A stretch of 64,000 nt of DNA, from the NCBI GenBank assembly GCA_037310415.1, contig CP147780.1, positions 584,701 to 648,700 on the forward strand, in the 5' to 3' direction. Positions 17,474-41,223 of the stretch are shown here, piece by piece; the stretch's first letter is position 1, and each line of letters opens with the position of its first letter. Position numbers and translations under genes: made by a program. Below the pieces are notes generated by a model. That model did not search any database, was not told the origin of the DNA, and saw nothing but the letters and a program-made list of their open reading frames with translations. The stretch comes from Candidatus Atabeyarchaeum deiterrae (GTDB lineage Archaea > Asgardarchaeota > Atabeyarchaeia > Atabeyarchaeales > Atabeyarchaeaceae).

Positions 17474-17479
17474 GGAAGT

Positions 17480-19314: not shown

Positions 19315-19318
19315 TAGT

Positions 19319-20329
19319 CTACCCTGTCTCCATTCTTCTTGGTATATGAATTCTGATCTCCATCTCCTTGCATAGGCTCAGAAGCTCCTTCGTGAGATGT
19401 TCAACCTTTGAAAGGTCTCTCTTACTGTTCTTCAACTCGTCTCTTTCCTCTCTTGTAATCGTCTGAACCCGCTTCAGAAGGCTTTCAACACCTTTGATGA
19501 AAACAGAATCTGTCATAGGGAATTTTGCCTTAATCTCGTGATGAACCTGTTCTATATCTTCTCGGCCCTTGAAGACTCTTTTCCTAGCATCCTTGTACTT
19601 GTATACGGTTCCGATAAGCCTTACATCCTGGGCTTTTCTTATTGTTCCATCCTTAATTAGCTCAACAACTTTCTCAACAATCTCTGGATCCGCAACCCTC
19701 CGGATTTCCTGAACCGCCGCATTCTTTACTAACTGTTCGAAGTGGCTGTATTTATCCTTCCTCATTTCTCCGTTCTTGACCATTAACTCAACTGCCTCTA
19801 TTTTCTGCGATATTGAAGCAATATTGTCGCCGGCAACAGCTTCTATCTGTTGCAAAGTCATTTTGTCTTCAACCCTCATCTTGCGGAACAGATTTGCCTT
19901 ATCATATGCATCCCACTTAGCCTTTCCCGCGATGTGCTCCGTGCAAAGCAGTCTGTATATTTCTTCTTGAGAAAGCCTCTCTACAATTACATTGCTCTTG
20001 ATCAACGTCCATTTGTCGTCTCCAGTATCCTTGTGGAGATGACGATAACAACACAATCTTGTGTTTCCTTCTAAGACCTCATGATCATATACTAATACGG
20101 GGTTGATTAACCCCCCATCGTTCTCAATTTGATGATACAACTCGTGAGTCGCGTCCCTTTGCCAAAGTTCCTGATCGATTATGTCATCAGTAACCTGTCC
20201 ACCGTGTTCACTAACAATAGTTGCGATTCTGGGATTTCTTGTGTAGTATCTCAATACGTATATGTCCAGCAACTTGTACTCGTATTTTATCTCCTTTCCT
20301 CTTATCGATAGAGCAATTTGATTTGCCAT
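19319..20329 (-). CDS. ParB/Srx-fold protein, DGQHR-like (EGNTR variant)
   Basis: YYTRNPR box, GGLINPVLV...VLEGNTRLCCY. Paralogous to 22192-23364 (shared KAQDVR segment). Confidence 0.65.
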   Translation of the reverse strand: MANQIALSIRGKEIKYEYKLLDIYVLRYYTRNPRIATIVSEHGGQVTDDIIDQELWQRDATHELYHQIENDGGLINPVLVYDHEVLEGNTRLCCYRHLHKDTGDDKWTLIKSNVIVERLSQEEIYRLLCTEHIAGKAKWDAYDKANLFRKMRVEDKMTLQQIEAVAGDNIASISQKIEAVELMVKNGEMRKDKYSHFEQLVKNAAVQEIRRVADPEIVEKVVELIKDGTIRKAQDVRLIGTVYKYKDARKRVFKGREDIEQVHHEIKAKFPMTDSVFIKGVESLLKRVQTITREERDELKNSKRDLSKVEHLTKELLSLCKEMEIRIHIPRRMETG

Positions 20330-20332
20330 TTT

Positions 20333-21829
20333 CTAACCCCCTAAGATCCTGAGCAAGTCAGCTTTCGACAAATAGCTGCGCTTAAATGTAATGCACTCTG
20401 TGTCGCCCAGAGTATATTTCGCGATCAGTTCCTTCTTCTCCAATATCTCATCAGTATATTCATCTATTGTATCTTTAGCGATAATCTTGAAGACCTTGCA
20501 TGGCTTGGTCTGCGTTATTCTGTGGATCCTGTCTTGCGATTGAAGATAGTCATCCATTTTGAAGGTTCGGTCCACATAGATTGCGTTGTTTGCGGAAGTT
20601 AGAGTTAAACCTTCTTTTGCGGCAGCTGGGTTCGCAATCAGCAACTTGCATCGCTCTTCGTTCATGAACTTCTTTACGATGTTGAGACGATCCATAATTG
20701 GAATCTCTCCGAAAAGCATCTGCGCCCCAAATTCCTTGAAACGATTCCTGAGTGTTCTAATGTTTCCAATGAAACTTGTCCATAAGATTGCTTTCTCTTT
20801 TCGCTCCACAACATCACGAACAAGTCTGTTCAAAACCTTGAACTTGCCCGGTTCCTCATTATACTGAATGTTTAACAAGCCTGGGTTGCTAGCGATTTGA
20901 GTAAGTCGGAGTAGTTTAACCAGATAATTGTCTATCTCTTCCTCGATCTTCTCTCCGTCGGAGTTAGAGATCTCATAGTAGAGTTCACTTCTAGCCTTGT
21001 CATAGGCTATTCTTTGCTTAGGCGCAAGTTCGGCGGTTACGTTCTCAAAAGTTTTTTCGGGAAGCTCCAATACATCCTTCGTTCTTCTAATAGAGACTGG
21101 TCTCAAGGTCTCCCTTAACGATTTTAGACTCAATTCGAATTGGCTCATGTCTTGGGCTCCCTTCAAGTCGACCTTGAATCGCTTTTGGAAAGCGTCAAAG
21201 TCGTCTCCAAGTAGCACGCCACCATCCAAGAAATAGAATTGAGACCACAGGTCTTCTGGTCTATTTGCAATTGGCGTCCCTGTGATTATGATCCTCTTTG
21301 CAACAAGACTCCTCAAGGAGATTACAGCTCTTGCTGTCTTCGATTTTGGGTTTTTCATTTTTTGGGATTCATCAAGAACCATTGCGAATCTTCGCTGCCT
21401 CAACAATAGTTCAATGAACTCGGTCTCCTGAATCAGGGATTCGTAGTTGGCTATATAGAAGTGTCCATAGGTTGTAAGCATGCGACCCCGTTGCATTCTT
21501 GAGCCGTCCAAAACTACTGGAAGGAGATTCGAGTGTTTCTCTATTTCGTCTTTCCACATATATAATAGAGACTTCTTACAAATAATAAGCGCACCGTCTA
21601 TCGTTTTCTCCTTCATGTTTCGGCACAGAGCATCGATGACGATTTTGCTTTTGCCCAGACCCTGCTCATCAAACAATGGCACGTCATTGTGAGTGCTGAC
21701 ATAGTCTGTAGCCTCGATCTGATGTTCAAGAGGCTCGGTTTTCGAGGAGAAATCAAATGTGACTTTCTTAATCAGTCTCAACCAACTCCTCAGGAAGCAC
21801 AATGTACGAGACATTAGTAAGTTTTTCAA
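20333..21829 (-). CDS. SNF2 family helicase
   Basis: Motif I DEQGLGKS, motif II VLDESQ, motif VI QSQDRIHRITQ. The annotated start overlaps the upstream gene by 62 nt, so the true start is probably TTG/ATT near 21780. Confidence 0.85.
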   Translation of the reverse strand: MKNLLMSRTLCFLRSWLRLIKKVTFDFSSKTEPLEHQIEATDYVSTHNDVPLFDEQGLGKSKIVIDALCRNMKEKTIDGALIICKKSLLYMWKDEIEKHSNLLPVVLDGSRMQRGRMLTTYGHFYIANYESLIQETEFIELLLRQRRFAMVLDESQKMKNPKSKTARAVISLRSLVAKRIIITGTPIANRPEDLWSQFYFLDGGVLLGDDFDAFQKRFKVDLKGAQDMSQFELSLKSLRETLRPVSIRRTKDVLELPEKTFENVTAELAPKQRIAYDKARSELYYEISNSDGEKIEEEIDNYLVKLLRLTQIASNPGLLNIQYNEEPGKFKVLNRLVRDVVERKEKAILWTSFIGNIRTLRNRFKEFGAQMLFGEIPIMDRLNIVKKFMNEERCKLLIANPAAAKEGLTLTSANNAIYVDRTFKMDDYLQSQDRIHRITQTKPCKVFKIIAKDTIDEYTDEILEKKELIAKYTLGDTECITFKRSYLSKADLLRILGG

Positions 21830-22187
21830 GACCGAGATCGACCATTAAGCGCAACAAGATGCTTTCTTCGTTTCTGGGCACTCCGATTATTAGTTCAAAT
21901 CTCAGTCCGGATGTAGCCCCAACAATATTCGAATAGTCCAGCAGTTGCTCTCTAGTTCTTTCTGACAACAAGTCATCTCCAGTTTTTGCCTCGCCAATGC
22001 ATAGCACCTTGGTTTCCATGTTTATGCCAATTACATCTGGTCTGTGTCTACCTATCCTCGGGGGAACATGCACCGCTTCACCATGAAATGTGTAATACTG
22101 CCCATCATATGCGACTGGAGCATACCCCTCCTCCCGCATCTTTCTGCCTATTAGGTCAACAAGCATTCGGTGCATCCGCGATGGCAT
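21768..22187 (-). CDS. Small PD-(D/E)xK-like nuclease-fold protein
   Basis: 139 aa with RPDVIG ... CIGEAKT, matching the D...(D/E)xK pattern. No other domain. Confidence 0.5.
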   Translation of the reverse strand: MPSRMHRMLVDLIGRKMREEGYAPVAYDGQYYTFHGEAVHVPPRIGRHRPDVIGINMETKVLCIGEAKTGDDLLSERTREQLLDYSNIVGATSGLRFELIIGVPRNEESILLRLMVDLGLEKLTNVSYIVLPEELVETD

Positions 22188-22191
22188 GTCT

Positions 22192-23364
22192 TCAACTCAC
22201 TTCGAACTTCTTAAACATCTCTGCTATACTCGAAATTTGTTTATATAGCTCGAGAATCAGTTCCTTCTTCTTTGGCTCCTCGCCTGCAACAATGCTCCTT
22301 TCCTCTTCTCGTGACATGCTCTTGAGGCCTTCTATACACTTGTTCATGTGTTCGAACAGTCTCGAAGCATAAGCTGGCATAGACAGACTGAGCTCTTCTT
22401 TTGCGGCGGAGAAACCTTCCTCCTTCAGTACTTTGACAATCTCTTTGTTATCAAACATCTTCTTCAGATCTCGAACGTCTTGAGCACGCACGATCTCCCC
22501 GTTCCCAACCCAATCACAGAAGTCTTTGTCTTCAAGCTCGTGTTTCTTCATTCCATCTATGATCTTCTTGCTCTCGTATTCAACGAAATATGAAAACTTC
22601 GTGAATGGATTGTCTCTGCCTGTGTAGCTTGGCAAAAACTGTTCGGTCATGAGTTTGTATGCTTTTATCCATCTTCTGATGTCGACCAACGAAAGTTTCG
22701 TCGTATCCATAAGTCGCCGTTCGCTGTATCCCCTCTTGTCCCATAGTATGTACAGCATTCTGGCTCTCTCGTAGGCTTGCCAGTCATTCTGTGCGCGTAA
22801 ATGTGCTATGAGGCGGATGAAGTTTCTTGCGCGCTCATCGGTGCCCTCTGGAAGGATCCTTGCCTTGATCTTCGTGTATTCCTCTTTCCTTGGGTACTTG
22901 TCTCTTAATTCTCTGTAGATAATCACTCTTGTGTTGCCATCTATGCACAGATATTTCTCACCTTTCTTCATGACCCAGATCATTTCGACGGCGCCACCGC
23001 CAGCCTCGATGCTGCTCTTCAATCTGTTGTATGCGTCCACATTCTGCTGTTTCAAGAAATAGACCAGGGTTTTTTGATTTGTTGTCTGCCCCGCGCTAAG
23101 ATAGTTGTCTCTTGCGTATCCAATTCTGGGATTCTCTTCATCCAATTCGATCTCGTCTATGGGAATATCATCGATTTCGATCTCTTCTGGCACGCCATCG
23201 ATTGGAACTTCCATTTTGTACCGATCCTTTTCCTCCTTTCTCTCACTCGGCGCCAGAAGTACACTTTTGTCATCAATGTCTTCGGACAACTTGTCACACC
23301 TCTTCTCTACATTTACCCCCTCATGAAGTCGTGCGGTGAACCCCCAGTGAGTCTGGCAAGTCAA
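22192..23364 (-). CDS. ParB/Srx-fold protein, DGQHR-like (DGNTR variant), acidic N-terminus
   Basis: IELDEENPR box and YLCIDGNTRVIIY. The start may be the internal Met (MEVPIDG). First gene of the operon. Confidence 0.65.
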   Translation of the reverse strand: MTCQTHWGFTARLHEGVNVEKRCDKLSEDIDDKSVLLAPSERKEEKDRYKMEVPIDGVPEEIEIDDIPIDEIELDEENPRIGYARDNYLSAGQTTNQKTLVYFLKQQNVDAYNRLKSSIEAGGGAVEMIWVMKKGEKYLCIDGNTRVIIYRELRDKYPRKEEYTKIKARILPEGTDERARNFIRLIAHLRAQNDWQAYERARMLYILWDKRGYSERRLMDTTKLSLVDIRRWIKAYKLMTEQFLPSYTGRDNPFTKFSYFVEYESKKIIDGMKKHELEDKDFCDWVGNGEIVRAQDVRDLKKMFDNKEIVKVLKEEGFSAAKEELSLSMPAYASRLFEHMNKCIEGLKSMSREEERSIVAGEEPKKKELILELYKQISSIAEMFKKFEVS

Positions 23365-27352: not shown

Positions 27353-27572
27353 GGACCGAATTGCAGAAGGCGATACCGAAAGAAATGATAGAGCCTTTAA
27401 GAGCCAAGTATGAGAGCGAATGGCAGGAAGAGTGGGAGAAGGCAGTTCTAAGGATTATGCTGTTCACTTAATTCCTGTAGAATATGCACTAAATTACGCC
27501 CTACGGGAATACAACACAGACACACCTCGCAGGAAGGCCAAAAAAGAAGGGTCAGACAGCCAAAAAAGAGGA

Positions 27573-29075
27573 CTACGCAGTTGCTGACTGGGACATGTGC
27601 TTATACCTGTTCGCTTTCCTCGCAGCGTCAAGGGTCTTAGGGTCGCACCGCTTCATCTCACCCTCAGGAAACACAGACAACAAATCCCAGGCGAGATCAA
27701 GAGTCTGATCAATGCTACGATCCACATATTCACCTTGAGTGATAAACTTCCGCTCAAACGTATCAGCAAACTTCAAATACGCCTTATCCCGATCACTCAA
27801 AGCCTCCTCACCAATCACAGCAACTAAATCCCTGAAATCCATACCCTCACTAAAAGCATAATACAACTGATCCGACACTTCCCTATGATCCTCACGCGTC
27901 AACCTTTCTCCAGATTTTGTCACACCGATCCCCTCCTTCATCAACCGACTCAAAGACGGACGCGGGTCGATCGGGGGGTATATACCCTTGTGATGGAGAG
28001 CCTCAGAAATAATGAGCTGTCCCTCAGTAATATACCCAGTAAGATCTGGAACGGGGTGTGTGATATCAGAATGCGGCATCGTCAAGACTGGCATTTGTGT
28101 TATTGTGCCTTTTCTGCCTATTATGCGTCCTGCTCTTTCGTATATGCTGGCGAGGTCTGTGTAGAGGTATCCTGGGTATCCTCTTCTTCCTGGGACTTCT
28201 TCTCTTGCTGCGCTGATTTCTCGTAGGGCTTCTGCGTAGTTTGTCATGTCTGTTAGGATGGCTAGGACGTGTAGGTTTTGTGTGTATGCTAGGTATTCTG
28301 CTGTTGTTAGGGCGCATCGGGGTGTTATGATGCGTTCTATTGCTGGGTCGTCTGCGAGGTTTAGGAATAGGACTGTGCGTTCGAGTGCGCCTGTTCGTTC
28401 GAAGTCTTTGCGGAAGTATTGTGCTTCTTCTGCTGTTATGCCCATGGCTGCGAATACTACGGCGAATTGTTCTTCTTTGCCGAGTACTTTTGCTTGGCGT
28501 GCTATTTGTGCGGCTATGCGGTTGTGTGGTAGTCCTGCTCCGCTGAAGAGTGGTAGTTTTTGTCCGCGTACGAGTGTGTTCATTCCGTCTATGGTGCTGA
28601 TTCCTGTTTGGATGAATTCTCGGGGGTATGCTCGTGCTTCGGGGTTTATTGGGCTGCCGTTTATGTCCCACATGTCTTCGGGTATGATTGGTGGTCCGTT
28701 GTCTATGGGTTCGCCTGAGCCGTCTAGGGTTCTGCCGAGTATGTCGGTTGTTACTGGGATTTTTAGTGGTTCGCCTGTGAATTGTGCTTGTGTGTTTTTG
28801 GTGTCGAGTCCTGTTGTGCCTTCGAAGACTTGGACGATGGCTTTGGTTTTGGTGATTTCTAGGACTGTGCCTCTTCTTTTTTCTCCGTCTGGTGTGGTTA
28901 TGTTGACGAGTTCGTTGTATCCTACGCCTTGGACGTTTTGGATGATGATTAGTGGTCCTGTTACGTCTGAGATGGTTTTGTAGGTTCTTTTGGCGTAGAG
29001 TGCTGCTGCGGCGATGTGGGCGGCTGTGGCTGTTTTGGTGGCGCTTTCTTGTTTTTGTTGTTTGGTTGTTGCCAT
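27573..29075 (-). CDS. atpB: A-type (archaeal V-type) ATP synthase subunit B
   Basis: Colinear AtpB sequence ([73 protein letters not shown]). Has a 28-aa T/K/Q/A-rich N-terminal extension. Confidence 0.95.
27600..27716 (-). repeat. atpB 3'-end copy A (functional gene end; putative att-like site)
   Basis: Homologous to copies B, C and D. The shared core of about 40 nt encodes [13 protein letters not shown]. Confidence 0.7.
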
Positions 29076-29132
29076 GGGTGTGTTCTCCGTGTTGTTGTTT
29101 GAGGTGGTTGGGGTTTGGTTGATTGTGTGTGT

Positions 29133-29144
29133 CTTATAATTTTT
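29133..29144 (-). promoter_or_regulatory. Candidate TATA box upstream of atpB
   Basis: CTTATAATTTTT is one of very few A-containing patches kept in an otherwise A/C-purged spacer. It lies 58-69 nt upstream of the atpB ATG. Confidence 0.3.
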
Positions 29145-29494
29145 GTGGTTTTGGTATCTGGTGTTTTGGGTTGGTTAGGGGAATGGGAGGGTCTGTAATC
29201 TTGGGTTTGGTGAGATTGGAGTTGAATGGTTTGGAGGGGGAATTGGACTTGAATGGTGGGGGTGTCGGGTTTTTTTGTGTGATTGTCTTTCTGTGTCTGT
29301 CGATGCTTTTTGTTGTAGGTTAGGTTGATCTTGGGTAGGAGGTGGGTAAGTATTTCTGGATGGTGAGGTTTGATGGAGGATTGGTGAGTACTTCCTTGTT
29401 GGCTGGTTTTTTCTTCTGTTTGGTTGGTGTGACGTGGAGCTCTCGATGAGTTTTGGTTAGGTGTAGTGTGTTTTGTTCTGGTTGAATTTGGAGA

Positions 29495-30850
29495 ATGTTT
29501 ATATTTCAGTGCGTATTTTCTTTTTCGCGAATTGGCATAAGAGGAGATTTCACTTGTGCCGTTCGTTTTTCCGATTTGAAAAGGGTTGATTTTGGATCAG
29601 AGTGGGTGGCTTTGCCGAAGCGTAGTCAGGGGCGCAGGGTTAACGTTTGGGTTGCGTTGGCAGTTGTGTTGTTGGCTGTTAACATCGGTCAATTTGCGTT
29701 TTTTGTGTGGTTGCGGCCGAGTGTTCCGGTGGAGGATTCACCCATCCAAGTGGGGGACGTTACTGGTGTGAATAGGGCGAGTTTCCTTGGGAAGACGGTT
29801 ACGTTGGAAGGATACTTCGTTGGTGTGTTGGGGGGGAAATCGTTTCTCACTGCTGGTTTGGATGATTTTAGGCAGAATAGGATTCTTCCGTTGACGAGGT
29901 TTGTTACGATTGGGGGTGACCTTCCGCTGGATCTTTTGAATCAGACGGGTAGCCGCATCTTGCTGAAGGGGGTAGTTGGGATTGATGATTTGAATGCTAA
30001 TTTGACGCGTATTTCGTATGTGTCGCATAAGGTCGTTGAACCAAGTGCGCAGAATTATGCGCTGTGGAATTGGGATAAGCAGATTAGTATTCCTACGCCT
30101 CCGTTTCTGCAGCCGCATAAGTATGCGGTGTTGATGAGTGGGGGGTGGGATGCGGAGCACGCGTTTATGCGTTACTGGAATGATTTGAAATTCATGTTTG
30201 CTATTCTGACTGGGTATGGTTACAGTGGAAGTAATATTTTCGTTCTCTACAAGGATGGCGTTCCTGAGGATGCAGGGATATTTGTGAACGCTTCTTGCAC
30301 GTATGCGAATGTCGCTGCTGCTTTTTCGACTCTGCAGGCGAAGATGACGGATCTTGATGACTTGTTCATCTATACGACGAATCATGGGAACCCGGCGCTC
30401 TGCTTATGGAATCATGACGTACTGATTCCGTCTGACTTGGCGTCGATGTTGCAAGGTATCACGTGCCATGTCATGATCATCTTGATGCAGCAATGTTACG
30501 GGGGGGCGTTCGTACAAGATTTGAGTGGTTCGAACCGGGTGATTATGACCGCGGCGAATTCGAGTCAGTACTCATGGGCTTGCGACAAGGAAGGACCTTG
30601 GGATGAGTTTACGTACCATTTCATGGATGCGATGCGAGGGATGACCTTGATCGCAGACCCTGTGTTTGCAGACTACAATAGTGATGGGAAGGTATCCATG
30701 GTCGAGGCTTTCAATTATGCGCAGAGCATGGATAGTTGCGCTGAAATCCCCCAGTTTGATGATAACGGAGATGGCGTCAGTCATTCGGGATGGATGACCG
30801 TCGGCGGGGATGGCTATCCTGGTGGGCTCGGAGCTACGACGTTTCTGTAG
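29495..30850 (+). CDS. Membrane-anchored peptidase C13 (legumain-like, clan CD) family protein
   Basis: TM helix VWVALAVVLLAVNIGQFAFFVWL. Catalytic His-Gly FIYTTNHG and Cys IILMQQCYGG in clan-CD order. Ca-binding-like ADYNSDGKVSMVEAFNYA. Start uncertain. Confidence 0.7.
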   Translation: MFIFQCVFSFSRIGIRGDFTCAVRFSDLKRVDFGSEWVALPKRSQGRRVNVWVALAVVLLAVNIGQFAFFVWLRPSVPVEDSPIQVGDVTGVNRASFLGKTVTLEGYFVGVLGGKSFLTAGLDDFRQNRILPLTRFVTIGGDLPLDLLNQTGSRILLKGVVGIDDLNANLTRISYVSHKVVEPSAQNYALWNWDKQISIPTPPFLQPHKYAVLMSGGWDAEHAFMRYWNDLKFMFAILTGYGYSGSNIFVLYKDGVPEDAGIFVNASCTYANVAAAFSTLQAKMTDLDDLFIYTTNHGNPALCLWNHDVLIPSDLASMLQGITCHVMIILMQQCYGGAFVQDLSGSNRVIMTAANSSQYSWACDKEGPWDEFTYHFMDAMRGMTLIADPVFADYNSDGKVSMVEAFNYAQSMDSCAEIPQFDDNGDGVSHSGWMTVGGDGYPGGLGATTFL

Positions 30851-30992
30851 ATGATTGTTGGGACCATTTCTCCATATTTCTTCTTTTGACAACGACGAGA
30901 GTTCCGTGATGTCGGCCCGAAAAGTTGCCTTGCTCCTATTCTCAGAGAAAACGCGCAGAGTTGTCAGCAGGGTTTCGGGGAAGGGATTGCTT

Positions 30993-33900
30993 CTAGGTGT
31001 AGAGAAGTGCGCCGACTGTTATATGGTTGACTAGTTTGTTGGTTTCGTTCTCGTTGAATGGTAGGGGTGTTATTCCCCGGAGATTGAGGAATGCAAGTGT
31101 TCTCTGTAGTTTTGTGGCGTCTTTTTTCCATGGTGTGATTATGATTAGTCCCTTTATTTGTTCCTTTTGAAGTTCTTGTCTTATTGTTCCTATTTTTGCT
31201 GTTGTGGTTGATGGGTTCATTGTGTTGTTCGTCCAGACCGTGATCACGTATTGGCTTTGGTTATTGTTTGTTGTCGTTGTTAGTAGTTCCATGTTTTGGT
31301 CTATCCACATCGTGTTGATTCCTTTGTTTCGGAGGTCTTTGTGTATTGTGGTGGTTATGTATTCTTGTAGTATGTTTCGGTTTTCGTGGTCTGTGACTTG
31401 GTAGTATATTCTTGTTGTCGCTTGGGGGTTTTGGTAGTCTGGTGCTCTGACATCCCCGATGAGGTCCTTGGCAATTAGGGGTTCTATGTGTTTGATTAGT
31501 TGTTCCTTTGTTTTGATGTTCAGTCTTCTTTGTAGTATGGTTTCATCGATTATTTCATGTTGGTGTTTGAAGGCTTGTTTCACATCATGCCATAGTTGTG
31601 TCTCTTCGGGTGTGAGTGACCGTTGGCTCAAATTAGTTCTCGTAACGTGTTGGTGTTCTGGTTGCTCCTCACGTAGTGTTGGTGGTGGTGTGTTCATGGG
31701 TGGATTGGATGGTGTGGGTGGCTGGTAAGCATTTGGGGTATGGGATGTCTGTTGCTGGTTGTAGGTGAATGTGGAGCGTGGTGAGTTGTTGGAGAGGCTT
31801 TCTGTTTCTAATTCATGTTTGTCGTTTTGAAGCTGTTTTGTTTGTTGTTTCGAGTCTTTCATTGCTTCTATTGCTTTGATGTAGGTTCTTAGTGCTTCTT
31901 TATAGTCGCCGGCTTGGTATGCTTCTTCTGCTCTGCTTTTCAGTATGCTTGTTTCTGGGTCATGTGCTGTTATTGATTGGTTGTGCTCCGCTGGATTGGG
32001 TTTCGCTGTTTCTGCGTCGTAGATTATCGGGTAGTTTACCATGTTGTTTGTTATGATGTCTCTGTTGCTCACTTTTGGTGGGTTTATTTCGCATGTTCTA
32101 ATCCTTATGGCTTTGGAGTGTTTGGGTGTGGTTATTATGGCTTCCATCTTGGGCATTGCTTTGAGGTAGTTGGTTTGTTCTTCATTTAGGTTTAACCATT
32201 TTGCTGCTTTTTCGCCATCTACTGTTGTTCTTAGGAATATCTTGGTTGCAGAGTTTGCTAGTATGTTTTGACTTATGTTTGGTCTTTGTGTTGAGATTAT
32301 TACTCCTTGTCCTGTCGCTCTGAGTAGTAGTACCATTTGCTCGGTTATGCTTGTTTCAGCTGTTGTTCTTTTGGTTAGTATTTCTGGTACTATGTCGAGG
32401 GCGTCATCGATTATGAGTATGTGTTTCAAGTTGTCTTGTATTCCCCGTTGCTGGGCGGCTGTGGCTACGTACTTGGTGATGATGCTTGATATGAGACGCA
32501 AGTCTTCTCCTGTGCCATTTGTCTTGATTTCGCTCAGATCTATTATCGCTCTTCGTTTGATCAAGTCATTGAAGTTCACGTTGCTCTCGTCTTGATTGAA
32601 TACTTCGCTCAGTGGAGTTCTTGTAAAGGAGTATAGACGGTTGAGTAGAGCTTGGATTGTTGAGTTTATTTGAGGTATCGAGGCTGAACCGCTTCTCTTT
32701 GCGTAGCTTTCGAGCCACTCATTGAATCCACTCCAGTTTCTTGTGGTTTTGTCTTCGGATGATCTTTGCCTGATCGGTTGGTCCCTTTCTTCGCCATGTT
32801 CCTGGTCTCTCTTGTCTGGAGACGTCTTTTGTGTTATGTAGGTTACTAGAACCTCATAGAAAACCCGTTCCATTTGAGCGCTTAGCTCTCTGTTCTGATC
32901 TGTGAAAAGCGTTGAGAATGTCTCTTTGAGTATCGTGAAGATCTTCTTTGCATGAACATCAGGTTTTTCCATTTCTGGGTCAAACAGGCTGATCTTCAGT
33001 GCAGCGGTTTTCGACGCTGGCTTAAGATAGACAACGTTGTCCACTGATTTCACGAGGGGTTTGTACTCGCCTTTCATCTCTATTAATGTCCACGCGATAT
33101 CATAGCGCGACAGGTTCTCAAGTATTTTCATGATCAGCCTTGTCTTGCCGAATCCTGTTTCACCAAAAATGACAGTATGTAGCTTGAGATCCTGCAGTTT
33201 GATTCTCATTGGGCAAATCTCGTTTTCACCGTCGAGTACTGTGCCGATTATTAACTCCCCGTCTTCAAGCTCCTCCATTGAGGGAACATGAAAGGCTGGT
33301 ATTGATGTCTCGGGGATGCCTGCAACATGTTGCTCTGGTAGAAGGATCAGTGTTGCTGCTACCCTTGAAGAAGCATTCAACGTTGTGAACCCTATCGTCT
33401 GCCTGAATAGAAGATTAGTTAGATGTTTCGCAACATGTTTTCCTTTTAGCTTTTCGCATTCAATCCCAACTCCAGGGTTTGAGTAAATTGCCTCAATACA
33501 AGCGTCACCTTTCTCTTGCATCGACTTTGTTTCCTCAGGGGTCTCGCCTCGGTAGGCAACATATGCCGAGATCTTCCAGTAACCAGAGAGCTGTGCATTT
33601 CTATCTTCGCTAGCCTCTCTTTTCTTCTCATCGAGTTCAAGTAGTAACCTCATGTTGGGTTCCGTTTTCGCTTTTTCAATGAGTCTTGATTCTGATGCTA
33701 TTGATGGGGGTTTTGTTGCCTCCAAGTGAATTGTCATTGAAGCGGTGAAGCGTTCTCTTGTAAATGTTGAGATGAATTGCTCAACTTGGTTCTTTGGCAT
33801 CCCAGTAGTTGAGTCTGGGTTGGCCCTCCCCTTCAGGGCACTTACGGCAACATAACGCACATCTGTCCCTTGAATCCTTTCTATCTTGAGGAGCCTCCCG

Positions 33901-34790
33901 CGCGCATCGCCGGTGAAAGTCGAATCCCGACCGAGAATTGATCTGTAAACGCTCCACAGTTGGTATCCTTGTAGAAATTCGATCTTGGTGTTGAATCTGC
34001 TTTGCATTATGCTTCTAAGCTTTTGAGCTTTCTCTTCGGCTACTTCTGCAGCATGTTCTGCATCTGGACTAATTGCCAATGTGAAGAATTCCACTGATGA
34101 TAGACCTTTCTCTACTGTAAACTCGACACTGAAATCTGGAACATTATTCCATAAGGAAGTCATATGAGAAAAGTTGACTATCTCCCCAACCGTTGTCTCA
34201 AAATCCCTTTTTTCGTGTGTATGAATCATTAGTCCTTTACCTAGCGGCTCCAATGAATTTGTTGAGCGACTCGCCAACTTGAGAATGCACAAGGCGAAAT
34301 TCTTGTCCTTGCCCTTGAGCACAAGAGTCTTGCCACGGTAGACTGCCAAATCTGTGGCAGGATCCACGCACTCACCGTCTATTTTGATGTTTCTCCGAGA
34401 AAAAGACATGGCGACTGACCCAAGCAATGCGAGGAATCCGGAAACCAGAAGGAACTGGTTAAACAATACTACTAATGTACCAGAAGGCGAGGGCAATCCT
34501 GTTAATGAATTGCTCAGGCAGGCGGAAACAATACTAACAACTACTATACTTAGGGAGACTATTGCTGCACACTGCGACTTCTTCTTGATGTATTTCTCTT
34601 CAAATAGTCGGTAGGCGATGTATGACATGACCACGATTGGCGATGTCGTTAGAGTTATTCCCAGTGTCTGTTGGTATAGGGACGCTTTTTCCAAACCAAG
34701 GAGTTGCGTGAGCAATCTCGCGATAAGCAAAATGAATACATTGACCGCGAGCAAAGAGATTACTGCGTTTCTGCCGTTGATGATAAGCAC
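30993..34790 (-). CDS. Membrane-anchored HerA/FtsK-like P-loop ATPase (paralogue 2) with T/N/Q/P-rich C-terminal region
   Basis: N-terminal TM helices, Walker A IFGETGFGKTRLI, Walker B HILIIDDALDIV. The block LNLNEEQTNYLKAMPKMEAIITTP is shared with the 1064-aa ATPase. Confidence 0.7.
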   Translation of the reverse strand: MLIINGRNAVISLLAVNVFILLIARLLTQLLGLEKASLYQQTLGITLTTSPIVVMSYIAYRLFEEKYIKKKSQCAAIVSLSIVVVSIVSACLSNSLTGLPSPSGTLVVLFNQFLLVSGFLALLGSVAMSFSRRNIKIDGECVDPATDLAVYRGKTLVLKGKDKNFALCILKLASRSTNSLEPLGKGLMIHTHEKRDFETTVGEIVNFSHMTSLWNNVPDFSVEFTVEKGLSSVEFFTLAISPDAEHAAEVAEEKAQKLRSIMQSRFNTKIEFLQGYQLWSVYRSILGRDSTFTGDARGRLLKIERIQGTDVRYVAVSALKGRANPDSTTGMPKNQVEQFISTFTRERFTASMTIHLEATKPPSIASESRLIEKAKTEPNMRLLLELDEKKREASEDRNAQLSGYWKISAYVAYRGETPEETKSMQEKGDACIEAIYSNPGVGIECEKLKGKHVAKHLTNLLFRQTIGFTTLNASSRVAATLILLPEQHVAGIPETSIPAFHVPSMEELEDGELIIGTVLDGENEICPMRIKLQDLKLHTVIFGETGFGKTRLIMKILENLSRYDIAWTLIEMKGEYKPLVKSVDNVVYLKPASKTAALKISLFDPEMEKPDVHAKKIFTILKETFSTLFTDQNRELSAQMERVFYEVLVTYITQKTSPDKRDQEHGEERDQPIRQRSSEDKTTRNWSGFNEWLESYAKRSGSASIPQINSTIQALLNRLYSFTRTPLSEVFNQDESNVNFNDLIKRRAIIDLSEIKTNGTGEDLRLISSIITKYVATAAQQRGIQDNLKHILIIDDALDIVPEILTKRTTAETSITEQMVLLLRATGQGVIISTQRPNISQNILANSATKIFLRTTVDGEKAAKWLNLNEEQTNYLKAMPKMEAIITTPKHSKAIRIRTCEINPPKVSNRDIITNNMVNYPIIYDAETAKPNPAEHNQSITAHDPETSILKSRAEEAYQAGDYKEALRTYIKAIEAMKDSKQQTKQLQNDKHELETESLSNNSPRSTFTYNQQQTSHTPNAYQPPTPSNPPMNTPPPTLREEQPEHQHVTRTNLSQRSLTPEETQLWHDVKQAFKHQHEIIDETILQRRLNIKTKEQLIKHIEPLIAKDLIGDVRAPDYQNPQATTRIYYQVTDHENRNILQEYITTTIHKDLRNKGINTMWIDQNMELLTTTTNNNQSQYVITVWTNNTMNPSTTTAKIGTIRQELQKEQIKGLIIITPWKKDATKLQRTLAFLNLRGITPLPFNENETNKLVNHITVGALLYT

Positions 34791-34927
34791 CCGTAATTCT
34801 AGTATAAAAGCAGCTGGTATTAGAACCCCTCATTTGGCAGAGACGGTCCCAAAGGCAGAATGAAGAAAGAGAGAACCTGTGGACAAAGTACACGCAAGCG
34901 TGGTCGACTTTTTTCCTTATTCTCGAT

Positions 34928-36724
34928 CTATGCCGTGGCAGCTATGCTTGATGTTGACTTGCTTAGTAGAGATTCAAACTGCTGATCCATTCTTTTCTCA
35001 ACTTCGTCAAAGACTTCTTTGATTTTTGATTGCTCAACTATTTTGAGTCGAGCTATTTCGTCGTAGGTGCCTAGCTTAAGCACCTCACGAATTGGTGCAC
35101 CTAGATTAACCGCCCTTTTCATGTTCTCGTAGAATTTGATTACTGCTCTCAGTAACCTGTAGGACTTTGTTGGATCACAATATGAGTCGACTGGATGCAG
35201 GGCTGATTGCATCAAGTAGTCTTCTCTGATCATTCGGGCCGCCTCCAAGATCACCTTCTCAGTTTCAGGCAACGCGTCAGGCCCCACAAGTTGAACGATT
35301 TCCTTGAGTTCCTCTTCCCTTTGCAGCAAGGTCATTGCCGTCTCCCTTATTGAAGCCCATTCTGGGCTGACTTTGGCTTCGAACCATTCTCTTAGGTTAT
35401 CCTGGTATAGGCTGTAGCTTTGAAGCCAGTTTATCGCAGGGAAGTGCCTTCGGGAGGCTAGGTCCTTGTCAAGCGCCCAGAAGACCTTAACAATCCTGAG
35501 TGTGTTCACCGTGACTGGTTCTGAGAAGTCCCCGCCTGGTGGACTAACTGCTCCAGTTACACTAATGCTACCAATGCGCTCCTTGGGCCCTAGAATCACA
35601 ACTCTTCCAGCCCTCTCATAGAACTCGGACAGCCTGCTCGCGAGGTATGCGGGATACCCCTCTTCGCCTGGCATCTCTTCAAGACGACCTGATATCTCCC
35701 TTAGAGCTTCGGCCCACCTTGAAGTGCTGTCTGCCATTAGAGCAACATCGTAACCCATGTCACGGAAGTACTCAGCCATGGTGATTCCAGTGTAAATGCT
35801 TGCCTCTCTCGCTGCCACCGGCATGTTACTGGTATTTGCTATCAGCACCGTGCGCGCCATCAGAGGCTCGCCAGATCTCGGGTCAGTCAGCTTGGGGAAC
35901 TCCTCTAGAACTTCTGTCATTTCGTTTCCCCTTTCCCCGCACCCGACATAGATTATTATCTTAGCATCGGCCCATTTGGCCAATTGGTGCAGCATCACGG
36001 TTTTTCCTGTCCCGAATCCTCCAGGAATGGCCGCAGTTCCACCTTTTGCAGTCGGGAAGAATGTATCTATGATCCTTTGACCAGTAACCAATGGTGTATC
36101 GGTACTCAACTTAAACTTAATGGGACGTGCTCTTCGAACAGGCCAAGTTTGAAGGAGCGCTATTTTATTCTCTCCACCGTCAGCACTCTTAACAGTGGCT
36201 ATTGTGTCAACCAGTTTGTATTTTCCCTCATCCGCAACTTCAACTAACTCGCCTGACATACCGTAGGGAACAATTATCCTGTGTGTTACAAGTTTCGTTT
36301 CTGGAATTTCACCAACTGGTGTTCCAGGCTCCACCTTTTCACTTTTTCTCAACAATGGAATGAAATGCCACTCAGTGTCGCGGGGCAGTGCCTCCGTTAC
36401 GACGCCTCTCCTTATGAAGTCGCCAACAGCTTCCTTGATTCTAGGCAGCGGCCGCTGAATGCCATCAAAGATCTGACCGATCAGACCCGGACCCAATTCA
36501 ACTGACAATGGTCGCCCTGTAGCGATAACAGCTTCCCCCGGTTTGATCCCAGCGGTCTCCTCGTAAACCTGAATGGTGCAAACATCTCCAGATACCTTGT
36601 TCACTTCTCCGATTAATCCTTCGTCCCCTACTCTGCAGACCTCGTACATCTTAACACCGCGGAGACCTTCGGCATCAACGACTGGTCCTGAGACCCTGAT
36701 TATTTTACCATTGATTTCTGACAC
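34928..36724 (-). CDS. atpA: A-type (archaeal V-type) ATP synthase subunit A
   Basis: [15 protein letters not shown], Walker [11 protein letters not shown], and [32 protein letters not shown]. 598 aa, so no intein. Confidence 0.95.
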
Positions 36725-37981: not shown

Positions 37982-38908
37982 TTGACCGATCTCCCCGGTG
38001 TCGGTCCCGCAATCGCCAAGAAACTAGTTGAAGCAGGGTACCGCCGAGTAGAATCAATAGCAGTAGCAGCAGTCCAAGAATTATCAAAGATAGCGGACAT
38101 AGGCGCTAACACAGCTCAGAAGATCATAGAAGAGGCACGTAAGGTTCTCGAAATCGGCTTCGAGACAGCAGAAGAAATCTTTAAACGCAGAAAGAATGTA
38201 GGGCGAATCATCACAAGCTCGAAGAACCTTGACACACTCCTGGGCGGAGGAGTTGAAACTCAGTCAATAACTGAAGCTTACGGCGAATACAGAACTGGAA
38301 AAACCCAGATCGCTCACCAGTTATCTGTAAACATACAACTTCCAGTCGAAAAAGGCGGACTGGAAGCCGGAGCACTCTATGTAGATTGTGAAGGAACCTT
38401 CAGACCAGAGCGCATCTACCAAATGGCGCTCGGACAAAAACTCGACCCAACCAAGGTTCTCAAGAACATAATAATCGCAAGAGCTTACAATTCCGACCAC
38501 CAAGTCCTGCTGGTTCACCAATCCGAAGAATTCGTTGAAGAGAAGAACATCAGGTTGATAGTGGTCGATTCAATAGTCGGGCACTTCCGCGCCGAATATA
38601 TTGGGCGTGAAAGATTAGCAGAGCGCCAACAGAAACTAAACAGACATCTGCATGAACTGCAAAGGCTCGCCGACATACATGGAGTCGCAGTATTCGTTAC
38701 GAACCAAGTCATGGCTAAACCAGACGTTTTCTTCGGAGACCCCACTCAACCAGTTGGTGGTCACGTACTTGCACACGTGCCTCAGACACGGCTTTACCTC
38801 AGAAGATCTAAGGGAAACATAAGAATCTGCAGACTAGTCGATAGTTCATATCTACCGGAAGGCGAAGCAGTCTTCGTGATCACAGAAGAAGGAATAAAAG
38901 ACCAGTAG
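37982..38908 (+). CDS. radA: DNA repair and recombination protein RadA
   Basis: HhH LTDLPGVGPAIAKKL, Walker A GEYRTGKTQ, Walker B LIVVDS. TTG start. The frame closes at 37925, so only TTG 37982 or a rare ATT at 37931 is possible. Confidence 0.9.
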   Translation: MTDLPGVGPAIAKKLVEAGYRRVESIAVAAVQELSKIADIGANTAQKIIEEARKVLEIGFETAEEIFKRRKNVGRIITSSKNLDTLLGGGVETQSITEAYGEYRTGKTQIAHQLSVNIQLPVEKGGLEAGALYVDCEGTFRPERIYQMALGQKLDPTKVLKNIIIARAYNSDHQVLLVHQSEEFVEEKNIRLIVVDSIVGHFRAEYIGRERLAERQQKLNRHLHELQRLADIHGVAVFVTNQVMAKPDVFFGDPTQPVGGHVLAHVPQTRLYLRRSKGNIRICRLVDSSYLPEGEAVFVITEEGIKDQ

Positions 38909-38956
38909 AGCCCCGTGAGGGTTCGCACTTCATTTTCTCTGCTCGAAAATCAAGCA

Positions 38957-39066
38957 TGGCGGGCCCGGAGGGATTTGAACCCACGACCACCGGCTGTCCG
39001 CAGATGCGCCAATTATCTCCAAGCACTTCGCAGGCCGGCGCCCTATCCTGACTAGGCCACGGGCCC
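38957..39066 (-). tRNA. tRNA-Arg(GCG) with a 32-nt intron at the canonical 37/38 position
   Basis: Reverse strand folds as GGGCCCG-UG-GCCU-AGUCAGGAUA-GGGC-G-CCGGC-CUGCGA[intron]A-GCCGG-UGGUC-GUGGG-UUCAAAU-CCCUC-CGGGCCC-G-CCA. One U-U mismatch in the T stem. Confidence 0.8.
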
Positions 39067-39270
39067 TTCACGAGACAATTCAGTTAAAGACTAGATCGGT
39101 CAGAGTTTAATACCTTTTCTTTCTCAGAAAGCAACTCTCCGCAAATCCCTAAAAGCAATTATTGCAATACCAGTACCATAACGGGAGTAGTTACTTTCAT
39201 CCAGGCTAAGCTTCACCTTCTTCCTACAGAAAGACTGACTCCCACCCAGCACTGAGGAGTTGTAAGCGGT

Positions 39271-40029
39271 TTGGAGGAAGAGACACCATCAAGCACCTCA
39301 CACTTGAAGGAGATAACGCTGAGAATAAGAGTCGTTGAGTTTCTGAAACTGCTAAAGAGAACTCACACCTACAGAGAACTATCGCGCGCTTCGGGGTTAC
39401 CAGTTACCGTGCTAAACAGGTACATCAAAGGAAGAGTAATACCAAGTCAAGGCAGAGCCAATCTGTTGCTCAGAACCTTTCGAGACATGTTCGATCTGTC
39501 ATCGGAAGTGAAAGGCAGAATTGTTTTCGACAAGAATGGATATCTTGACAATACTCCCCTCCTCAGTGACACGCTGCTATCCCGGGCCATAGCAGGAGAA
39601 GTCGCAAAGAGATTTGCAAACAAGAAGATAACCAAGGTACTATGTCCCGCCGTAGACGGAATCCCCATCGCGGTTCATATCGCAAATGAACTCGGCGTCG
39701 ACTTAATCATCGCTAAGAAGGCAAAGGAGGTTGGCATTGAGAGTTTTATTGAGGAGAGTTATATCCCAAGTTATTCGGGAGTGATGATGAGTCTTTATCT
39801 CCCAAAGAAAGCATTGTCATCCAAGGACAAGGTAGTCATAATCGATGACGTCATTCGGTCAGGAGAAACCCAACGAGCACTAATCAATTTGGCTGACAAA
39901 GTTGGAGCAGCAGTCGTGGGGATATTCATCTTAGTCTCCATAGGCAACTTATGGGAAACAGAGCTGAAATTACCTTCTACGTGCCAGATGGAGATCCTTG
40001 TGAAACTGCCCGTACCGACTCATTCCTGA
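39271..40029 (+). CDS. HTH + phosphoribosyltransferase-domain protein (PurR/GfcR-like regulator)
   Basis: N-terminal HTH (YRELSRASGLPVTVLNRYIKG) and PRPP-binding loop VVIIDDVIRSGET. Confidence 0.65.
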   Translation: MEEETPSSTSHLKEITLRIRVVEFLKLLKRTHTYRELSRASGLPVTVLNRYIKGRVIPSQGRANLLLRTFRDMFDLSSEVKGRIVFDKNGYLDNTPLLSDTLLSRAIAGEVAKRFANKKITKVLCPAVDGIPIAVHIANELGVDLIIAKKAKEVGIESFIEESYIPSYSGVMMSLYLPKKALSSKDKVVIIDDVIRSGETQRALINLADKVGAAVVGIFILVSIGNLWETELKLPSTCQMEILVKLPVPTHS

Positions 40030-40514
40030 CCTATTCTTAAGAGAACTTTGCGCAACAATCCCACCAAAGAAATGATACCTTTCATAACTGGATCAGAAAT
40101 ACCTCTCCCAAACTCGAGTCTCAATGGTTCGATCCCTAGCACAACAACCTTTGCGTCCAACTCATTCTGCAAGTAGTCAATAAGAAGCGACAAAGGAAGA
40201 ACATGTGTAGAGAAACTCAAACCAGCTATGTCATCCTTCTCTACTATCCCAACGGAACCAGGCTGCAGCCCCATCTCCGCAACATCGACTATTAGTACAT
40301 GAGAAGGGTGATACTTACGAATGGCGGCAGTAAAATTCTCTGGTGTCGCCCCAGCTTCTATGATACGTACACCTCTCTGCAGATACCCTTCCTCCTTCAA
40401 CCGCCTAGCCAGCTCAACACCGCCTCCATCGTCGCCCTTAAGTTCGTTTCCCACACCTAGCACAAGCAGACGACTAGCCCCCCGTAATCTTTCTAACAAT
40501 ACATCTTCAAGCAA
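40020..40514 (-). CDS. Hydrogenase maturation protease (HycI/HyaD family)
   Basis: LLVLGVGNELKGDDGGG motif, 164 aa. Confidence 0.75.
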   Translation of the reverse strand: MLEDVLLERLRGASRLLVLGVGNELKGDDGGGVELARRLKEEGYLQRGVRIIEAGATPENFTAAIRKYHPSHVLIVDVAEMGLQPGSVGIVEKDDIAGLSFSTHVLPLSLLIDYLQNELDAKVVVLGIEPLRLEFGRGISDPVMKGIISLVGLLRKVLLRIGQE

Positions 40515-40618
40515 CTACTCGAACACCACTAAACATTAAAAAGGCATCATCGCTGTTTTAATCTTGACCTTAACCCCGAGTCTCACTTTATAGGTTAACC
40601 TCCAAGAGGAAGAGCAAA

Positions 40619-41215
40619 ATGGCAGAAGAACCTTTTGGCGAGAAAAGCGAGGAAGAACCAGAAAAACAGGAAATTGAGGAAGCCCCGATTCCAGAGAAAC
40701 CCAAGGCTTTTCTCTCTGATTTACAGACCATCATAAAGAAAGGCGTGGAAGACGTATACAACCGAGGTTTCTACGGCACAAAACAAGAAGACGGAACGCT
40801 ACTGCTATCACCAGTAGAGACCATGTTCTCTCTTGAAAGAAACAGAATCGAATTACACGACGAGAGGACTGGAACTCAGATAGATCTCTACGAGTACCTG
40901 CAAAGACTATATGACAAACACCAAGATCTGTGGACACAGTACCTAGTCTACAGAGACTTAAGAAGCAGAGGATACATCGTGAAGCAAGGTCTCAGTGAGG
41001 AGATCCCTTTCAGAGTGTATCCGAGGGGGAGCGAAATCGGCAAAGACACCTCCAAGTATCTGATCTACATAGTTAAAGAAGGCGTACCGATCGAGTTAAG
41101 CAAACTCGACAAAGCAACAACGACAGTAAAAGGCATAGGAAAGAAACTAATACTCGCCGTACTCAACAGACAAGGGGAAGCAACTTATTACCAGATCTCA
41201 CAAGTAAGCATTTGA
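40619..41215 (+). CDS. endA: tRNA-splicing endonuclease
   Basis: YLVYRDLRSRGYIVKQG and FRVYPRG catalytic-domain motifs, 198 aa. Confidence 0.8.
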   Translation: MAEEPFGEKSEEEPEKQEIEEAPIPEKPKAFLSDLQTIIKKGVEDVYNRGFYGTKQEDGTLLLSPVETMFSLERNRIELHDERTGTQIDLYEYLQRLYDKHQDLWTQYLVYRDLRSRGYIVKQGLSEEIPFRVYPRGSEIGKDTSKYLIYIVKEGVPIELSKLDKATTTVKGIGKKLILAVLNRQGEATYYQISQVSI

Positions 41216-41223
41216 AATTCAAA

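Follow-up and report, generated by a model that had tools for sequence, protein, structure and literature searches.

Reversal of strand composition inside atpB and a kilobase-scale G+T-rich tract shared by Asgard archaea of the Njord lineage

Introduction

Strand skews are the main read-out of replication, transcription and repair that sequence alone provides, and those known are small and span replichores, transcripts or organelle genomes. In the heavy strand of vertebrate mitochondrial DNA (mtDNA), A and C are lost by C→T and A→G changes associated with strand-displacement replication. Origin skew leaves the leading strand G+T-rich in bacteria and archaea and takes the form of N-shaped skew domains in mammals. 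The mutagenesis caused by AID-APOBEC enzymes, including kataegis, is cytosine-specific, has clear motif preferences and occurs in somatic cells, while diversity-generating retroelements (DGRs) change template adenines to any base, diversify a protein and need a reverse transcriptase and a template repeat. Here, we describe a tract at positions 28086-32700 of a 64,000-nt stretch of the Candidatus Atabeyarchaeum deiterrae chromosome (contig CP147780.1, positions 584,701 to 648,700; hereafter the window). In this tract the + strand is strongly enriched in G and T across part of atpB, which encodes subunit B of the A/V-type ATP synthase, a C13 peptidase gene and the end of a DUF87 ATPase gene. Mutational strand asymmetry is well known. 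The form found here, with a flip inside a gene, saturation, a range of kilobases, an archaeal chromosomal location and conservation in a clade, appears to be new, and our literature search retrieved no description of such tracts.

Like the mtDNA heavy strand, the tract is most strongly skewed near a fixed start, declines with distance and affects third codon positions whatever the orientation of the gene. Unlike mtDNA, it occupies a few kilobases of a 2.76-Mb archaeal chromosome, reverses its polarity within a gene and contains an unskewed gap followed by a second start. The purge in atpB, with 0.3% residual, is also more complete than that known for mtDNA. An earlier note on this DNA, made from the sequence alone, had pointed to the mtDNA heavy strand. 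The likeness holds for the transitional loss of both A and C, seen at twofold-degenerate sites, but not for the order of loss, as A loss here does not lag behind C loss.

The change of the + strand from A+C-rich to G+T-rich has the sign of an origin skew jump, and the same sign as the step at the candidate chromosomal origin (oriC) in the window. Unlike an origin skew, it lies inside a coding sequence without origin hallmarks, approaches 100% instead of a few percent and decays within 0.6-3 kb, not over a replichore. The one-strand G+T excess, sharp start, decay over 1-2 kb, G clusters and prominent A→G change recall asymmetries due to transcription and R-loops, but the enriched strand serves as template for the atpB 5′ part and for the DUF87 gene, and the magnitude is far beyond what has been reported. 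With somatic hypermutation the tract shares localised, strand-coordinated transitions, a defined 5′ boundary and a reach of kilobases; it differs in that A and C are both hit, context matters little, the composition is an evolutionary steady state and an essential gene stays intact. Site-anchored, directional and base-specific mutagenesis of a defined gene segment is also typical of DGRs. We nevertheless rejected a DGR: the window contains no reverse transcriptase domain and no template/variable repeat pair, A and C both change and the protein is conserved.

Results

A G+T-rich tract that follows the DNA strand

We analysed the window together with 10 kb of flanking DNA on each side, taking codon third positions and intergenic DNA as neutral sites and the + strand G+T fraction as the profile. 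G+T amounts to 68.9% in 28086-32700 and to 48.8% in the remainder of the window. For 29101-29340, the earlier note had counted 30 A and 12 C by hand; our recount is identical (with 95 G and 103 T, or 82.5% G+T). The highest 500-nt G+T value is 0.818. This is about 8.7 standard deviations (SD) out from the mean of a control of 1.29 Mb drawn from 80 other archaeal loci (mean 0.495, SD 0.037, range 0.322-0.67), which includes not a single 500-nt window that departs from 0.5 by 0.2 or more. In a second and more sensitive control, 10,426 hundred-codon windows from other archaeal DNA, the outgroup extremes occur only in L039, a contig considered below. The tract is thus a huge outlier, and the possibility that it falls within the normal distribution, which the earlier note had allowed for, can be dismissed.

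On the coding strand, third-position G+T is 0.28 in atpB and 0.33 in the 1265-aa ATPase gene, which are both on the − strand, and 0.75 in the C13 gene on the + strand. It is 0.48 in atpA (34928-36724, − strand in the gene list), and the background is about 0.5. The values for C13 on one strand and for atpB and the ATPase on the other indicate that the bias tracks the DNA strand and not the orientation of genes, as had been proposed. The third-position counts also agree with the earlier description of A/C-ending codons in the atpB 5′ part and at the end of the ATPase gene, and of G/T-ending codons in the C13 gene. The G+C content of the tract (about 0.46-0.49) matches that of the flanking DNA. 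The depletion of stop codons, which had been thought to create long spurious open reading frames (ORFs), is real but limited, with 32-41 stops per kb inside the tract vs. 44-45 elsewhere.

Neutral-site G+T is 0.98-1.00 at 28131-29028 and 0.77-0.93 both in the atpB-C13 spacer and in the first two-thirds of the C13 gene, after which it drops to 0.6. It is about 0.5 at 30865-30984, 0.73-0.90 at 30985-32500 and again about 0.5 by 32.9 kb, in agreement with the fading in the middle of the ATPase gene noted previously. The tract therefore consists of two tandem units of the same polarity, from 28086 to ~30.3 kb and from ~31.0 to ~32.9 kb, each with a sharp left edge and a rightward fade. The earlier note had recognised the 140-nt convergent spacer between the C13 and ATPase genes as an interruption. 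This spacer is indeed unskewed, but the gap is larger (30335-30992, about 650 nt, neutral-site G+T 0.5-0.65) and also takes in the last third of the C13 gene.

A polarity switch inside atpB

The left boundary of the tract is a reversal of polarity inside atpB (27573-29075, − strand), an intact gene of 500 aa (Pfam ATP-synt_ab, 2e-76, with the N- and C-terminal domains also matched). Codons 1-330 form a saturated core (28086-29075) with a neutral-site + strand G+T of 0.98-1.00. On the sense strand, their third positions are ~100% A/C, while those of the later codons are ~80% G/T. Codon-aligned third positions place the switch zone at 28047-28088. In the window itself, the flip falls between codon 330 (GTC, 28086-28088) and codon 331 (TTG), with the edge at 28085/28086. 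To the left is an arm of opposite polarity, made up of the 3′ third of atpB and ~80 nt beyond its stop (27490-28046); here the + strand is A+C-rich, with a neutral-site G+T of 0.13-0.32 (sampled at 27549-28038). On either side of the switch, the G+T-rich strand is the one that runs 5′→3′ away from it. The skew extends ~0.6 kb to the left of the switch and 2-5 kb to the right, which is the side upstream of atpB, with no replichore-wide persistence.

The switch site (atpB codons 330-342) lies 28 kb from orc1/cdc6. Repeat searches and alignment revealed no insertion and no repeat in the switch zone, and a scan for synonymous conservation found no elevation there. A cis element at the switch was rejected on the same grounds, together with the lack of tandem repeats, over-represented words and Rfam matches. 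We also rejected an intein or other insertion at this position. The 704-aa protein P0002, the top-scoring AtpB match on L086 (ENA contig k127_36635345), proved to be an unrelated AtpB that is longer through an internal duplication of ~240 aa, probably a metagenome assembly artefact. A perfect 12-nt palindrome (GGGTATATACCC, 27976-27987) is present in atpB ~70-100 nt left of the switch, where it encodes part of KGIYPP.

The AtpB proteins of the Njord clade carry an N-terminal extension of ~25-30 aa that is rich in T, K, Q and A and absent in other archaea (codons 1-30, 28986-29075). Both this N-terminus and the start of the C13 ORF seem to have been extended by skewed DNA that is poor in stop codons. 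An overlapping antisense gene was considered and rejected, given 3-7 stops in the antisense frame of each lineage where 1.4-5.3 are expected. The long antisense ORF is best regarded as a by-product of composition.

Conservation of the switch and class of substitution

The window DNA is 100% identical across assemblies of six sequencing runs, and our search for strain variants from which to read the recent mutation spectrum consequently yielded none. Runs that contain the organism are SRR28200044, SRR15677231 and SRR29366193/194/204/205. Independent assemblies from JGI and ENA yielded four further lineages (L003, L004, L005, and L088; 85-89% AtpB amino acid identity). The closest named relatives are Njordarchaeota, from hydrothermal sediment (86% identity for AtpB, and 59% to Ca. 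Njordarchaeum for HerA2, a second ATPase described below). Scanning a genome collection for more lineages returned no close relatives, and a metagenome pattern scan returned one new contig only.

The same switch occurs in L003, L004, and L005, inside a zone of ~36 nt, with the flip of the relatives within codons ~336-342. The L088 contig ends short of the switch, and its 5′ part is equally saturated. Among the relatives, A/C makes up a fraction of 1.00 of the third positions in the 5′ part but only 0.17-0.35 of those in the 3′ part. No switch is found in 80 other archaeal atpB genes (from Odin, Jord, Thor, Heimdall, Bathy, Thermoplasmatota, methanogens, and others), where the 5′ and 3′ A/C fractions are nearly always alike and mostly 0.4-0.7. 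The bias is local in the relatives and not a genome-wide property, the latter being the other outcome that the earlier note had allowed for.

A single wide gap among these 80 genes, in L039, goes in the opposite direction (0.26 vs. 0.49). This contig (JAZDGT010000010.1, from a metagenome-assembled genome of Methanobacteriota) shows a kilobase-scale, orientation-independent patchwork of keto/amino skew over positions 1-21326 (0.23-0.88), with skew domains that flip inside a co-directional ATP-synthase operon. It may represent a weaker, independent case of the same phenomenon.

Across four lineages, only 4 of ~1270 codons other than Met and Trp end in G or T in the atpB 5′ part, and Leu is encoded by CTA or CTC in all 101 cases. 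Twofold sites of codons 2-328 have A 211 times and G once where they end in a purine, and C 206 times and T never where they end in a pyrimidine. As only transitions are synonymous at twofold sites, the bias is made of transitions. Their direction on the sense strand must be G→A and T→C, which corresponds to C→T and A→G on the + strand of the window. At fourfold sites, the choice between A and C differs by 27-34% between lineages with G and T still excluded. Such heavy turnover, with G and T kept out, means that the force is still acting. The 5′ untranslated regions (5′UTRs) are purged as well, and in most lineages G is retained essentially only in the GGAG ribosome-binding motif. Polarising amino acid changes against outgroups was set aside, AtpB being too conserved for the purpose (9 changes toward A/C and 2 toward G/T in the 5′ part). 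A chimeric origin of atpB is excluded, as its two halves share their nearest relatives, and the earlier view that simple insertion of foreign DNA is unlikely is upheld. Taken together, these comparisons suggest a pattern kept throughout the history of the clade, in which the free sites of an essential gene are held in one base class.

The neighbourhood of atpB differs among lineages, and the skew differs with it. In L004, where the order is atpA-DUF87-atpB with no C13 gene, the skew upstream of the switch falls from 1.00 through 0.93, 0.80, and 0.70 to ~0.58 over ~2.5-3 kb. L005, like L004, shows a monotonic gradient; the conserved unskewed gap breaks it in the window and in L091. The L005 skew ends exactly at the junction of a truncated DUF87 fragment with unrelated DNA. 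L088 has an unrelated membrane-protein gene whose skew climbs toward atpB, from 0.58 to 0.96; an unskewed 1-kb block with a paralogue separates this gene from the skewed spacer upstream of atpB. L003 and L088 are 9% apart at fourfold sites and have wholly different unskewed genes beyond ~100 nt upstream of atpB. This unskewed DNA is a recent arrival, and its recent replacement of older DNA explains why those flanks lack skew. Rearrangement of the atpB flanks is frequent, with four to five contexts in six lineages. The force is positional: unrelated neighbouring genes and spacers are skewed, and more so the nearer they are to atpB.

The spacer, the C13 cassette and the DUF87 gene

The spacer adjoining the atpB start contains a promoter-like element of this gene (AAACCACAAnAAtTATAnnnCACACACAATCAACCAAAC, 29113-29151, − strand). 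Spacer alignment shows it to be conserved in five lineages (88-90% identity over ~40 nt), next to an A/C-only 5′UTR. Frame translation and repeat searches also uncovered a decayed duplicate of the DUF87 ATPase C-terminus at 29134-29265 on the − strand (TPPPFKSNSPSKPFNSNLTKPKIT vs. TPLPFNENETNKLVNHIT in the gene). A 17-nt direct repeat has its left copy at 29249-29265 (TTGAATGGTGGGGGTGT, + strand) and its right copy, 94% identical and 1805 nt away, at 31054-31070. The pair brackets the C13 cassette and, together with the duplicated C-terminus, indicates that the cassette was inserted into the 3′ end of the DUF87 gene. The cassette carries the gene for the C13 (legumain-type) peptidase (29495-30850, + strand, Pfam PF01650). 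In the family alignment, C13 homologues start ~39 codons downstream of the ORF start (the extension being 29495-29611), and the true start is probably at 29606 or 29612.

The 1265-aa product of the adjacent gene (30993-34790, − strand, Pfam DUF87) is a membrane-anchored HerA/FtsK-type ATPase. Its skew is confined to the 3′ ~1.9 kb (30993-~32900), with the sharp edge at ~31.0 kb and the fade to the right, and is maintained in L004, L005, and L091. A HerA/DUF87 ATPase gene of 1257-1265 aa splits the atpA-atpB pair in the window (30993-36724) and in L004 (4187-11473). L005 keeps just a C-terminal fragment of it there, and L003 and L088 have none at this place. The similarity of these DUF87 ATPases to CedD and HerA is weak and sub-threshold (59-69 bits for CedD, vs. 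a threshold of 600).

In L091 the C13 and DUF87 genes are also convergent, and again C13 is skewed, the spacer is unskewed and the 3′ part of DUF87 is skewed. Between the window and L091, fourfold sites differ by 30-35% where C13 is skewed, by 63%, a saturated level, in its unskewed last third and by 20-58% in DUF87. A fossil skew combined with a young insertion was rejected as the cause of the gap, since L091 shares the layout and the gap despite this 20-63% fourfold turnover. We conclude that the skew is under active maintenance on both sides of a stable unskewed gap.

Base preferences and searches for mobile or mutagenic functions

Partly skewed zones have A/(A+G) of 0.21-0.26 and C/(C+T) of 0.37-0.44. 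Effects of neighbouring bases are weak (surviving A 0.13-0.28, surviving C 0.21-0.37) and no context is spared, which argues against a motif-specific deaminase; A loss is slightly stronger in TA and AA contexts. The skewed strand has 9-20 runs of three or more G per kb and 1-5 such runs of C (background 7-9 for both). TATA-like strings at 28028-28035 and 31018-31026 lie 25-55 nt left of the two sharp edges and are not statistically distinctive. The G+T excess is on the non-template strand for C13, HerA2, and the atpB 3′ part, but not for the atpB 5′ part, DUF87, or the CDF transporter and DUF6448 genes of the second tract below.

The tract contains no tRNAs, Rfam families, repeats or special words. 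Pfam scans took in nearly all window ORFs, and the 10-kb flanks were covered through precomputed Pfam hits on their genes. With tRNA and Rfam scans in addition, we found no integrase, att site or tRNA at the tract edges. An integrated element or genomic island was rejected for want of an integrase, an edge tRNA, deviant G+C or phylogenetic discordance. For conjugative or Hfr-like transfer, we found no relaxase, a two-sided polarity and only sub-threshold CedD-like similarity.

Several candidate causes in the earlier note find no support in these results. An integrated, rolling-circle or conjugative element has nothing in its favour: integrase, relaxase and att site are lacking, and the pattern is anchored in an essential gene across differing flanks. 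A single rightward process starting at 28086 leaves the opposite arm on the left, the unskewed gap with the ~31.0-kb edge and the other tracts unexplained. The proposed enzymatic deaminase of single-stranded DNA (ssDNA) is disfavoured by the weak context dependence, which argues against the motif-specific type only. No DNA deaminase is encoded by the scanned window ORFs or flank genes, the other ~2.67 Mb of the genome being outside this search; the flank genes include one nucleotide enzyme of the dCTP-deaminase/dUTPase family.

Other tracts and the candidate replication origin

A second tract of the same polarity is present at 10810-15663 (neutral-site + strand G+T 0.65-0.90). It covers genes for a CDF transporter and a DUF6448 protein, both on the − strand, and for HerA2, a 1064-aa HerA-like ATPase on the + strand. 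HerA2 orthologues with 47-65% identity have a third-position G/T of 0.67-0.77. The gene belongs to a conserved three-gene unit (10810-17788, also in L089 and L090) that encodes the 1064-aa ATPase, a large protein and a ~105-aa protein. A weaker mirror tract at 37982-41420 (neutral-site + strand G+T 0.23-0.45) spans RadA, a PRTase gene, HycI, which is on the opposite (−) strand, a tRNA-splicing endonuclease gene and the 3′ end of GcvT. Third positions of RadA are A/C-rich in L004 too. The atpB tract is not unique in the window, which has these two in addition; the 10 kb on either side of the window are free of further tracts.

The oriC probably lies near 58 kb, judging from an ORF-free gap of ~900 nt (57566-58472) between orc1/cdc6 and ParA/ParB, in surroundings (54008-60550) classic for an archaeal origin. 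The gap holds short direct and inverted repeats. The orc1/cdc6 gene (55633-56886, − strand) adjoins that of the PolD small subunit, and the PolD large subunit gene is found ~6-10 kb past the window end (L094). At the candidate oriC, the skew steps from ~0.45 to 0.62, with the same sign as at atpB and a small amplitude. We rejected an amplified skew of the main origin as the source of the atpB tract, as forks leaving this candidate oriC give the opposite sign.

Other features of the window include a 107-nt, presumably intron-containing tRNA next to RadA (38960-39066, − strand), detected by Rfam and missed by ARAGORN, 1.5 kb from the tRNA-splicing endonuclease gene. The stretches 6982-8621 and 18055-23364 hold an AbiEi/AbiEii toxin-antitoxin pair and a cluster that may be a defence island, with an SNF2 helicase (ZorD/DpdE-like by PADLOC) and several unannotated proteins with weak PD-Lambda-5/PDC matches.

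Discussion

We favour a lineage-specific, position-anchored and strand-asymmetric mutation pressure that drove every selectively free site to saturation, and put the probability of this reading at roughly 55%. The bias consists of C→T and A→G transitions on the strand read 5′→3′ outward from one fixed point within atpB (~28.06-28.09 kb), with a second sharp start at ~31.0 kb in the window. Synonymous and non-coding sites are swept under purifying selection that keeps the amino acids; genes within range are affected even if unrelated and whichever strand they are on, and very recent DNA is still unskewed. We propose a three-stranded intermediate that departs from such fixed points, in which the affected strand would time and again be left single-stranded or be resynthesised with errors of the G·T type. 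The hydrothermal habitat would speed damage to exposed single strands.

As to the intermediate, our leading if tentative candidate is an R-loop, stable and made by G-rich transcripts that run rightward (antisense or bidirectional). It is ranked first because of the asymmetry in G runs, the unskewed convergent spacer and its possible self-reinforcement, as A→G changes on the displaced strand would add G. The convergent spacer, putatively untranscribed, is unskewed in two lineages, and this favours exposure of a displaced G-rich strand; the polarity could also fit the non-template strand of divergent transcription. We hold this ranking with low confidence, since it would need dominant antisense transcription inside atpB. 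Behind the R-loop we place a D-loop or abortive, recombination-dependent DNA synthesis, which is less likely, and then nick-primed error-prone resynthesis, which we regard as less likely again.

Several observations weigh against mutation pressure of this kind. The DNA covered comprises 84 kb of a 2.76-Mb genome. Antisense transcripts would have to outweigh sense transcripts in a highly expressed gene, and the equally expressed atpA is unskewed. The divergent spacer, presumably poorly transcribed, is still strongly skewed. A purge of 99.7% implies a forward-to-back ratio of at least ~300, which is above any described mutational skew, and the conserved unskewed gap demands a second start site or an extra rule. 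A saturated core and a sharp switch or start are both lacking in the HerA2 tract. Along every gradient, A loss equals or exceeds C loss, the reverse of simple hydrolytic deamination, in which C loss is expected to run well ahead of A loss. Finally, the TATA-like string near the switch is absent in L004, and such strings are common.

Selection offers a different account, in which a strand or transcript must lack G/T (or A/C) for its function and every synonymous site is held. Possible examples are an unstructured, A/C-only 5′ part of the atpB mRNA, a strand-specific protein platform, or immunity of an exposed strand to deaminating damage. Such an account would accommodate a purge beyond known mutational skews, the constancy of atpB itself, in both polarities, as the part shared by all lineages, and the retention of only functional G's in the 5′UTRs. 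We consider it unlikely, as the bias is blind to gene orientation, spills with distance into unrelated genes and spacers and varies in extent by lineage. Moreover, it drags along the amino acid composition of the weakly constrained DUF87 C-terminus and C13 N-terminus, no conserved element or RNA family was found, and constraint from an antisense ORF is excluded. Next, and also unlikely, is a nick or break that recurs at specific sites, namely the switch and ~31.0 kb. Repair or strand-displacement synthesis by a low-fidelity polymerase would then proceed outward, and its G·T mispairs would add G and T to the new strand. Its polarity would suit nascent strands that depart from a point in both directions, the kilobase decay is like that of repair or gene-conversion tracts, the excess of A→G over or equal to C→T with stronger A loss in TA/AA resembles T·dGTP misinsertion, and both atpB flanks rearrange unusually often. 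Against it, the switch has no endonuclease, intein, homing-endonuclease gene or conserved target motif. The ssDNA exposed by end resection at a break, a variant that we rejected by reasoning from the switch profile, would have the opposite polarity.

A local replication initiation zone inside atpB, origin-like and possibly abortive as in the mtDNA D-loop, would agree with the leading-strand G+T excess and with the sign at the candidate oriC. As forks from that oriC would produce the opposite sign in the tract, a separate local process is needed in any case. We find an initiation zone quite improbable, though, at a site that falls within a conserved ORF and lacks ORB-like repeats, an AT-rich unwinding element and a neighbouring initiator gene; the amplitude is far above that of the real origin candidate and fades in kilobases, and the gap is left unexplained. 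We give slightly less credence still to a targeted DNA or RNA deaminase, or to ssDNA transfer by the neighbouring HerA/FtsK-type translocases (Ced- or Hfr-like). The amino bases A and C are both lost from one strand, both strong tracts hold large membrane-anchored HerA-type ATPases with weak CedD similarity, and the sharp start and distal fade resemble a hypermutation 5′ boundary or an Hfr transfer gradient. These likenesses are countered by the weak context dependence and the low CedD scores, by the absence of a DNA deaminase, relaxase or oriT-like element among the scanned window ORFs and flanks, and by L003 and L088, which are skewed at atpB without an adjacent DUF87 gene; one-way transfer would also leave the arm of opposite polarity unexplained. 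Artefact, foreign DNA or a chimeric gene might be suspected from the sharp compositional edges, typical of insertions, and from the C13 cassette, which truly was inserted. This explanation is effectively refuted by the identity of six runs, the recurrence of the switch in diverged lineages from independent assemblies (JGI and ENA), the unchanged G+C, the shared relatives of the atpB halves and the survival of the bias through saturating synonymous turnover.

Returning to mutation pressure, it is possible, though doubtful at present, that Asgard archaea of the Njord lineage continuously convert A→G and C→T on one strand over 1-3 kb at a few fixed sites, among them the middle of an essential gene, by a process not known before. 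Such site-anchored conversion would act through persistent R- or D-loops or through hypermutation-like deaminase or polymerase machinery, and polarity flips would mark the starts.

Whatever their cause, the tracts distort codon-usage statistics, create spurious ORFs and N-terminal extensions, and bias the amino acid composition of marker proteins in phylogenies of Asgard archaea and eukaryotes. If the tracts reflect selection, there is a function that demands a two-base strand or transcript. If DNA synthesis is initiated at their start points, a close relative of eukaryotes could have initiation zones that are eukaryote-like and closely spaced. If they are mutational, the locus would be a natural, stable and tolerated zone of targeted hypermutation with a local bias of at least ~300-fold. 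It would then provide a handle on single-strand exposure, R- and D-loops, the handling of deaminated bases and replication initiation in the archaeal relatives of eukaryotes.

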